From: a virus | Lineage: Duplodnaviria > Caudoviricetes | Virus record (IMG/VR): IMGVR_UViG_3300025121_000013 | Direction: 5' to 3' (one strand) | Length of the DNA: 64,000 nucleotides | In this document: positions 30,282 through 30,719 of the stretch, one piece after another | How positions within the stretch are numbered: the first letter of the stretch is position 1 | How the letters are laid out: each line of letters begins with the position of its first letter | Notes under the pieces: model-generated | Databases searched by the model: none | What the model was told of the DNA's origin: nothing | The model's input: only the letters and a program-made list of their open reading frames with translations | Made by a program: the position numbers and the translations under genes

Positions 30282-30719
30282 TTAGAAACCCTTCCGTCCG
30301 GCAGGCTTCAGGAACTCGAGGGAGTCGTTGGCCTGGAGAACGTAGTTGTCGTCCTTCACGTCACCGTTCACGATACCCTGGGCCATCCGGTCGATGTTGA
30401 GGGCTTCCGCCAGGAAGCGAGAAACCTCGCCCACGGTCTTCCCGACGACGGGGTAGTTCCCCGAGCTTGCACCGGAGGTGACCCGGATGGTCGTTGTGAT
30501 CTGGTTCCCACCGGACACCCGGGTGCTGGTCGCGTCATACTGGAGCCCACGGATTGCGGTGGGGCCAGGCTGACCCGCTTCGTCGTTCCGGGTGTTGGCC
30601 AGGATGGCGCTGATGATCTCATCCTTCCGGCGCTTGGACATCCCGGTGATCCCACGGCTGACGCAGATGTCACGGAGTTCACGAACGGTCATGGCGGACA
30701 GCTGTTCGGCGGTATACAT
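30282..30719 (-). CDS. ubiquitin-like protein with N-terminal Rho-N/HeH-like domain
   Basis: N-term LSAMTVRELRDICVSRGITGMSKRRKDEIISAI; C-term beta-grasp-like ...VNG...YVLQANDSLEFLKPAGRKG-F; about 60-65% GC. Confidence 0.8.
   Translation of the reverse strand: MYTAEQLSAMTVRELRDICVSRGITGMSKRRKDEIISAILANTRNDEAGQPGPTAIRGLQYDATSTRVSGGNQITTTIRVTSGASSGNYPVVGKTVGEVSRFLAEALNIDRMAQGIVNGDVKDDNYVLQANDSLEFLKPAGRKGF

Follow-up and report, generated by a model that had tools for sequence, protein, structure and literature searches.

The window analysed here is a 64,000-nt stretch of DNA (about 27% GC) that forms part of a 125.6-kb IMG/VR virus record, IMGVR_UViG_3300025121_000013 (Duplodnaviria; Caudoviricetes). 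On its minus strand, at 30282-30719, lies a gene for a small protein that joins an N-terminal Rho_N domain of the helix-extended-helix (HeH) class to a C-terminal ubiquitin-like (Ubl) domain; we call the protein Rho_N-Ubl and consider here whether it serves as the modifier of a conjugation pathway. The gene stands within a block that also encodes a ThiF-type E1, a JAB/JAMM metallopeptidase and several E2-like candidates, and the block is followed directly by the RNA polymerase (RNAP) genes. The start codon assigned to it is consistent with 40 homologues. The identical protein, in the same gene surroundings, is found on 24 contigs (the three listed places are from different samples), and relatives occupy the same slot in about 85 related loci, a recurrence far beyond chance. 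Rho_N-Ubl is a core gene of an uncultured clade of AT-rich huge phages.

A sequence-only reading of this gene had proposed an HeH front of the Rho N-terminal/SAP/LEM class at residues ~1-42, a Pro/Gly linker and a Ubl-like domain ending in Gly-Phe. This two-domain architecture is borne out by Pfam, by an AlphaFold2 model and by ESM Atlas comparisons. Pfam matches residues 6-42 to Rho_N (PF07498) with 37.8 bits against a gathering cut-off of 24.9 (E 1.8e-9), with SAP as a second, weaker match. The AlphaFold2 model of the full protein was built on the family alignment and has a mean predicted local distance difference test score (pLDDT) of 80; structure prediction had been named by the earlier reading as a check, and the model indeed gives an HeH-type fold with helices at residues 4-8, 12-21 and 32-47, disorder at 47-53 and then a mixed α/β domain. 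The linker, with a GQPGP stretch and pLDDT <50 at residues ~47-53, varies among relatives in both length and sequence. Whole-model Foldseek searches (PDB, AlphaFold/Swiss-Prot) returned only noise (E >0.03, with TrkA-C, MHC and bHLH matches); since the two domains are flexibly linked, VIA-align and ESM Atlas were used instead.

In the N-terminal domain, residues 2-48 superpose on the N-terminal domain of Rho (1a62_A) with a Z of 9.2 and a root-mean-square deviation of 1.2 Å over 47 residues at 26% identity, the best match among 48,161 chains (the runner-up reaches Z 7.1). After Rho come LEM, SAP, FAN1 and T4 endonuclease VII C-terminal domains, with LEM, SAP and endonuclease VII at Z 5-7. A profile of 41 family members matches only Rho N-termini among PDB structures, and PHROGs match the domain to the C-terminal region of endonuclease VII. 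The conserved positions comprise a hydrophobic core (L7, L15, I39), a turn Gly and two lysines, K29 and K32, which are the two near-invariant surface residues and sit at the helix-extended-helix junction; the pattern G-x-SKKxK-x3-I-x2-IL is conserved within the family.

The C-terminal domain is, by structure prediction, a ThiS/MoaD-type β-grasp. Weak Pfam matches to ThiS are found in 37 of 40 family members (best E 2e-4) and to TGS in 35 of the 40. The ESM Atlas model of residues 70-145 aligns with a ThiS cluster at template modelling (TM) scores of 0.74/0.82 and with MoaD-MoaE at 0.64; TGS, RnfH and the SUMO-like Rad60-SLD also match this segment. In the full-length model the domain has pLDDT values of mostly 79-91, falling to 63 at residues 81-90.

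The C-terminus of this domain, and what follows it, can be compared across the family. A word-indexed search recovers 42 full-length-type homologues at 39-56% identity, IMG/VR contains 82 related loci, and an exhaustive profile search yields 84 cluster representatives at E ≤ 1e-30, 371 at ≤ 1e-10 and 1749 at ≤ 0.001. In an alignment of 41 sequences the last eleven family residues, LEFLKPAGxKG, are invariant or nearly so, and the terminal Gly is invariant. What comes after this Gly is free to vary. Among 57 distinct Ubl proteins read from related loci, 36 end exactly at Gly; 13 (loci L010-L089) share a recurrent ending in which KG is followed by a single Cys; the endings R, YK, LL, IDVGL, VILTK and DRKGC occur once each (6/57). 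In one further protein the terminal KG is followed by a basic 67-aa tail (L021, 5995-6624), and in another a single 319-aa open reading frame (ORF) holds two complete Rho_N-Ubl units head to tail (L068, 5515-6474). Among more distant relatives, some Ubls of 68-73 aa stand alone, some proteins place two or three Rho_N domains in front of a single Ubl (P0046, P0050, P0062, P0077), and others are chains of three to four Ubl units, each ending in KG (P0091, P0111, P0190); P0167 and P0181 are also among the variant forms of the wider family. One stand-alone Ubl directly follows a 230-aa ThiF gene on a contig that otherwise looks cellular (MraZ, RsmH, citrate lyase; L094), and the triple-Rho_N protein P0077 is encoded between radical-SAM and WYL_2 genes in another phage contig. 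Such a pattern, in which an invariant Gly may be followed by anything or nothing and precursors may hold several units, is classically that of ubiquitin-like modifiers that are processed and then activated. Moreover, the tandem form repeats the whole Rho_N-Ubl unit, which argues that Rho_N belongs to the mature modifier and not to a pro-peptide.

The neighbouring genes encode putative enzymes for such a modifier (Table 1). All genes from 37410 down to 22545 lie on the minus strand, and across 85 loci the block keeps one order on one strand: E2D > E2D > JAB > ThiF > Ubl > ThiF2 > small protein > β' > β. Among these loci ThiF2 is present in 85, β' in 83, E1 in 81 and JAB, by tblastn match, in 78. 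In the E1 alignment GxGGxG, D37, R48-Q49, D101 and C168 are all invariant; the JAB motif is intact in 58 of 64 loci scanned. Each of the two giant paralogues has a small E2_D-like core near residues 150-220, where all of the 52-56 sequences aligned keep one Asn and, eight residues away, one Cys; both paralogues also carry long unannotated C-terminal regions, which could be substrate-recognition or E3-like parts. In the small protein, the HPN motif and a Cys nine residues past the Asn are invariant in 31 sequences, with the spacing found in the active site of UBC-type E2 enzymes. The RNAP genes are unsplit (β', 908 aa; β, 1002 aa), and β' directly follows the Ubl block in 83 of the 85 loci, in agreement with the RNAP adjacency pointed out in the sequence-only reading. 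The closest match to β' in a cultured phage is only 30% identical (Rhizobium phages, RHph_TM group), so no close isolate of the clade is in GenBank. Directly upstream of the Ubl block stand the genes for a WYL_2 protein and a radical-SAM protein. The wider region holds genes for topoisomerase, helicase, Mre11/Rad50-like proteins, ligase, radical-SAM enzymes and FolE2, which marks it as a replication, transcription and nucleotide-metabolism block. No tRNA genes were found in the window or in the 125.6-kb record.

Table 1. Rho_N-Ubl, its parts and the genes around it; positions are those of the window.
Feature	Position	Strand	Evidence and remarks
Rho_N-Ubl gene	30282..30719	-	145 aa; TAA stop at 30282-30284
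Rho_N / helix-extended-helix domain, residues 2-48	30576..30716	-	Pfam, structure superposition, profile search
Flexible Pro/Gly-containing linker, residues 49-60	30540..30575	-	Low pLDDT; variable among relatives
ThiS/MoaD-type β-grasp Ubl domain (predicted), residues 61-144	30288..30539	-	Ends EFLKPAGxKG with G144
F145 codon	30285..30287	-	Lone residue past the terminal Gly; JAB presumably cleaves it off; relatives mostly end at Gly
Leader, 85 nt, E1 stop to Ubl start	30720..30804	-	About 45 nt nearest the ATG lie inside the GC-rich island
Intrinsic terminator	30240..30271	-	12-bp GC stem, UUCG loop, U tract; begins 10 nt past the Ubl stop codon
GC-rich island	~30245-30760		Ubl gene, ~45 nt of leader and terminator
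ThiF-type E1, 230 aa	30805..31497	-	Pfam ThiF E 3.3e-20; alignment; co-fold with Ubl tail
JAB/JAMM metallopeptidase, 371 aa	31494..32609	-	Prok-JAB E 2.9e-5; PRTRC_A E 2.5e-9; HxHx7SxxD
Giant protein, 814 aa, Prok-E2_D-like domain	32609..35053	-	N159 and C167 invariant
Paralogous giant protein, 785 aa, Prok-E2_D-like domain	35053..37410	-	N172 and C180 invariant
212-aa protein, hydrophobic membrane-anchor-like N-terminus	29587..30225	-	Variable block member, 22/85 loci
Second ThiF-like protein, 295 aa	28703..29590	-	Match limited to N-terminal Rossmann part; 85/85 loci
Small 144-aa protein, candidate E2	28272..28706	-	Motif only; H72-P73-N74 and C83 invariant
RNA polymerase β' and β	22545..28287	-	β' 25561-28287, β 22545-25553; directly downstream of Ubl block
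WYL_2 protein and radical-SAM genes	37777-39100	-	Directly upstream of Ubl block

A co-fold links the modifier to its putative activating enzyme. The complex of an E1 dimer with the Ubl domain scores 0.71, and the best of three controls scores 0.00; the mark used is attained by 58 of 80 solved complexes and by 2 of 110 mismatched pairs. The runs have at least 80% of their contacts in common, and the partner pLDDT is at least 74. Residues 137-145 of the Ubl are placed against E1 residues 7-12, 99-103 and 123-127, so that the tail is predicted to lie at the nucleotide-binding loop and the catalytic Asp region of E1, i.e., at the adenylation site. The MoeB-MoaD and ThiF-ThiS complexes have been solved, and they look like the predicted complex; the pass may therefore reflect this likeness and is no proof of binding.

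On this evidence we consider it rather probable that the protein is the modifier in a ubiquitin-like conjugation pathway encoded by the phage and that Rho_N is retained on the mature modifier. The idea of a conjugatable Ubl, put forward when the sequence alone was read, gains support from the fixed E1, JAB and E2-like neighbours, the invariant Gly, the poly-Ubl relatives and the E1 co-fold. The pathway might run as follows. The precursor would lose its C-terminal Phe145, presumably to the adjacent JAB, exposing Gly144. The 230-aa ThiF-type E1 would then bind the β-grasp, thread the KPAGRKG tail into its ATP site and adenylate Gly144, which would probably be loaded onto Cys168 of E1. The Ubl would next be handed to the invariant cysteine of at least one of the three E2-like proteins, the two giant Prok-E2_D-type paralogues and the small HPN...Cys protein, and attached to target proteins; JAB would reverse the modification. 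Throughout, the Rho_N/HeH domain would stay on the modifier via the flexible linker, and each conjugate would thus gain a small, basic three-helix module. For JAB, removal of the last residue may be the lesser task: most Ubls in the family already end at Gly, yet JAB is kept, so its main conserved role is more likely to be deconjugation.

Several observations weigh against this reading. The Ubl domain falls under the Pfam cut-off for ThiS (PF02597; 13.1 versus 22.5 bits), and the β-grasp, when modelled in isolation, comes out poorly (pLDDT 68.7), its first 28 residues being disordered. The terminus is Lys-Gly throughout the family and not Gly-Gly. E1 is of the small MoeB/ThiF type, which is typical of sulfur-carrier systems. 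The Prok-E2_D matches of the giant proteins, 24.5 and 18.2 bits, lie below the cut-off of 25, and the small HPN...Cys protein is recognized by neither profile nor structure search, the ESM Atlas search with it being uninformative. For the front domain, the net charge is only about +1, and in Rho the main RNA site is the OB subdomain, not the helical part.

These last points bear on what Rho_N would do once attached to a target. Domains with this type of fold bind nucleic acids in Rho, SAP, LEM and endonuclease VII, and they contact phosphate backbones at the helix-extended-helix junction, where K29 and K32 are found. Copy numbers of 0 to 3 among relatives, joined by a variable linker, fit a tethered module of the avidity type. 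The most likely role of Rho_N would be the binding of nucleic acid or of another polyanionic or repetitive surface, which agrees with the conjugatable nucleic-acid tether suggested when the sequence alone was read. An alternative accepts conjugation and makes Rho_N a docking or self-association module, whose partner might be a giant E2_D protein, ThiF2, part of the virion or baseplate, or further copies of the Ubl. The low net charge of the domain agrees with this, as do the HeH/Rho_N-like domains in the baseplate proteins of phages PhiTE and Bas63 and of diffocin (Z 5.2-5.6): with this fold also present inside phage baseplates, a protein-docking role is possible. Add-ons described for bacterial Ubls (coiled coils, DUF1508, three-domain filaments) likewise self-associate (PMC11601603). 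However, the near-invariant surface lysines fall at the site used by the fold class for backbone contact, and the top structural match is Rho, followed by the DNA-binding LEM, SAP and endonuclease VII C-terminal domains. We regard docking as unlikely, while rating it above the explanations that do away with conjugation.

The first of these is a sulfur carrier. Gly144 would be adenylated and thiocarboxylated by the ThiF-type E1, and Rho_N would deliver the sulfur to tRNA, to phage DNA or to a cofactor pathway, in analogy to TtuB and Urm1 in tRNA thiolation; JAB would serve only to expose the Gly, in the manner of QbsD and Mec+. Among named proteins, E1 matches MoeB/ThiF adenylyltransferases best, the Ubl matches ThiS weakly, one source labels a homologue as the small subunit of molybdopterin converting factor, and radical-SAM and 7-deazaguanine-pathway genes are nearby. 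In the QbsE/QbsD system, too, one or two residues are trimmed after the Gly. Yet a scan of 18 neighbouring proteins detects no rhodanese, cysteine desulfurase or PP-loop thiolase, three E2-like proteins with an invariant Cys are fixed in the block, known sulfur carriers end in GG where this family has KG, and tandem and poly-unit precursors are typical of modifiers, not of carriers. This alternative is weaker than conjugation, and we hold it to be improbable.

A non-conjugated two-domain adaptor, e.g., a transcription or DNA accessory factor of the phage RNAP that uses its β-grasp for protein contacts only, would be in keeping with the position directly upstream of the β'/β genes in 83 of 85 loci, and TGS- and RnfH-type β-grasp domains often act without conjugation. 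It leaves out of account the invariant Gly with free variation after it, the poly-unit precursors, the co-conserved E1, E2-like and JAB proteins and the predicted placement of the tail in the E1 site; we find it very hard to favour. The suggestion from the sequence-only reading that conjugation could recruit RNAP to phage DNA draws on the conserved adjacency to RNAP, which may simply reflect a collinear core genome.

The gene stands out by composition from everything around it. The GC-rich island (62% GC) comprises the Ubl gene, about 45 nt of its leader and the terminator, and is set in DNA of 26% GC; G+C at third codon positions (GC3) is 0.81 in the Ubl gene against 0.15 in its neighbours. 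The codons chosen reverse the preference of the genes around it: Ile is ATC in 10 of 10 cases (9% in neighbours), Asn is AAC in 8 of 8 (8%), Lys is AAG in 6 of 6 (17%), every Arg is CGN (15%) and every Leu is CTC or CTG (3%). A recent foreign insert or an assembly artefact, which would say little about phage biology, could be read from these contrasts and from the sharp island boundaries at ~30245 and ~30760 that take in leader and terminator, but is scarcely credible given the same island and context on 24 contigs (three samples for the three places listed), the same slot in the related loci, an identity to relatives (37-56%) that parallels that of the adjacent E1 (43-56%) and the lack of any closer donor-like sequence among 5.8 billion cluster representatives, where the best non-self match is 56% identical. 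The recurrence across contigs and samples rules out an assembly chimera. Simple capture from a host is not supported either: every one of the top non-self homologues (≤56% identity) comes from an AT-rich phage context, and their identity tracks that of the adjacent E1. Nor does the stretch appear to encode a structured RNA: Rfam gives no match in it, the folded mRNA scores z = -1.5 and is equalled by 7 of 100 shuffles, and the terminator is the sole sign of structure.

Among relatives the bias resembles selection for high expression. In 52 of 52 loci examined, GC3 of the Ubl gene exceeds that of its neighbours (mean +0.19), and in 41 of 49 loci the Ubl is the ORF with the highest GC3. In the set of 43 distinct relatives the bias chiefly favours NNC (over NNT), CGN and CTN codons, as is usual where highly expressed genes are under selection. 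The UUCG-loop terminator lies within a run of co-directional genes and may, as an internal terminator, lift the output of Ubl above that of the genes downstream. From these codon and terminator patterns, the phage probably makes far more of the Ubl than of the enzymes acting on it. Only three ORFs in the 125.6-kb record have a GC3 near 0.8: the Ubl, a ribosomal protein S1 fragment and an orphan 290-aa ORF, and their codon preferences correlate with r ~0.65-0.7. The latter two lie outside the window (L090), at G000:C1:3-587 (the 3' part of the ribosomal protein S1 gene) and at G000:C1:10303-11175; the 290-aa protein has a hydrophobic segment, is of membrane type and has no homologue outside this phage. 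That the other two GC-rich genes are host imports could not be shown, the 290-aa ORF being an orphan. The extra GC push in the three genes could come from adaptation to the tRNAs of a GC-rich host or from in-place replacement from an unsampled GC-rich relative.

The cassette resembles several known systems. Closest among the classes described are the '6d' operons, which combine Ubl, JAB and E1 with an E2 that lacks the His and keeps the Cys (Iyer, Burroughs, Aravind 2006; PMC1779556) and roughly correspond to the PRTRC cassette and Pfam Prok-E2_D. In this class, as in the phage block, the Ubl has one domain and a C-terminal Gly, E1 is small and of the ThiF type, and a JAB and an E2-like protein with the Cys but not the classical His are encoded alongside. 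PRTRC families are the best named matches of the phage JAB (PRTRC_A, E 2.5e-9), E1 (PRTRC_ThiF, E 5.2e-12) and giant E2-like protein (PRTRC_B, E 0.014), but all lie far below the family cut-offs (37 versus 101.8, 45.6 versus 144.75 and 14.8 versus 131.45 bits, respectively), and the phage Ubl has no PRTRC_C match (NCBIfam, TIGR03734-03742). The phage E2-like domain is embedded in two 800-aa paralogues, the block adds a second ThiF-like protein and a separate HPN...Cys protein, and the Ubl has Rho_N and ends in KG. No ParB domain was detected among the 18 flanking proteins scanned, and thus no ParB-related gene flanks the block within this set. Finally, PRTRC belongs to plasmids and integrative elements, whereas the phage cassette is a core module of a huge-phage clade. 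Judged from sequence comparison, the cassette would work much like the 6d/PRTRC class, yet by the cut-off and ParB tests it is not a member.

The Bil (BilA-D) and Bub systems likewise combine a Ubl with E1, E2 and JAB and include multi-domain Ubls (PMC11601603, PMC11601596); these Ubls may have extra N-terminal modules or several β-grasps, and their C-terminal Gly is used for conjugation. They are host defence systems, in contrast to the phage-encoded system described here, and Bil, Bub and CBASS models barely match the phage cassette: among PADLOC Bil models, only E1 has a weak match (BilD, E 0.0017), and Ubl, JAB and E2 have none. ThiS, MoaD, TtuB and Urm1, with their MoeB/ThiF E1s, are the closest relatives of the phage Ubl domain and E1 in sequence and fold, and the predicted E1-Ubl complex has the geometry of MoeB-MoaD. 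Apart from the differences in terminus, E2-like partners, poly-unit relatives and sulfur-transfer partners already considered, the Rho_N front domain has no counterpart in these carriers. Rho_N itself has the same three-helix fold as the Rho N-terminal helical subdomain (PF07498), SAP, LEM and other HeH domains; unlike in Rho, it precedes a Ubl, is accompanied by neither an OB-fold nor an ATPase, and is known here from sequence and fold. Among phages, λ and T1 encode tail assembly protein I, a Ubl, together with the JAB-containing protein K (PMC1779556). They share with the present case a phage-encoded ThiS/MoaD-like Ubl, a conserved terminal Gly and a JAB neighbour, but they have no E1 or E2, the context is that of tail genes, and the extra domain of the Ubl is C-terminal; here a full set of E1 and candidate E2 proteins is encoded amid replication and transcription genes, and the extra domain is N-terminal.

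The fusion itself had been called uncharacterised when it was noticed in the sequence, and this holds: neither a fusion of Rho_N with a Ubl nor a set of E1, E2, JAB and Ubl encoded by a phage was found described in the open-access literature searched, although such absence is unproven. The catalogued Bil/Bub Ubl add-ons are N/G-rich tails, coiled coils and DUF1508, and Rho_N is not listed (PMC11601603). Two huge-phage papers do not mention ubiquitin-like genes (PMC7162821; bioRxiv 10.1101/2025.02.27.640493). No Ubl homologue was found in GenBank phages.

Bacterial ubiquitin-like conjugation, as in type II CBASS, Bil and Bub, has so far been studied as host defence. Here the machinery is on the phage side and fixed across a huge-phage clade, and the modifier carries a domain of the HeH class, whose members bind DNA or RNA. 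If the tag is conjugated, it would offer a tractable case of a bacterial virus using Ubl tagging and a modifier whose signal is a built-in binding domain and not the β-grasp surface. The family supplies natural controls for the extra domain in its forms with 0, 1, 2 and 3 Rho_N, its tandem units and its poly-Ubl chains. The Lys-Gly tail also matters in practice for proteomics: after trypsin digestion, target lysines would keep a remnant of one Gly (+57 Da), unlike the Gly-Gly left by ubiquitin. A larger and decidedly more tentative proposal, which we think doubtful in its full form, is that of a clade-wide core conjugation pathway whose modifier, with 0-3 Rho_N domains, binds nucleic acid and tethers phage or host proteins to DNA or RNA. 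If true, tethering by conjugation would be a mode of ubiquitin-like signalling undescribed in cells or viruses, possibly tied to the adjacent RNAP.

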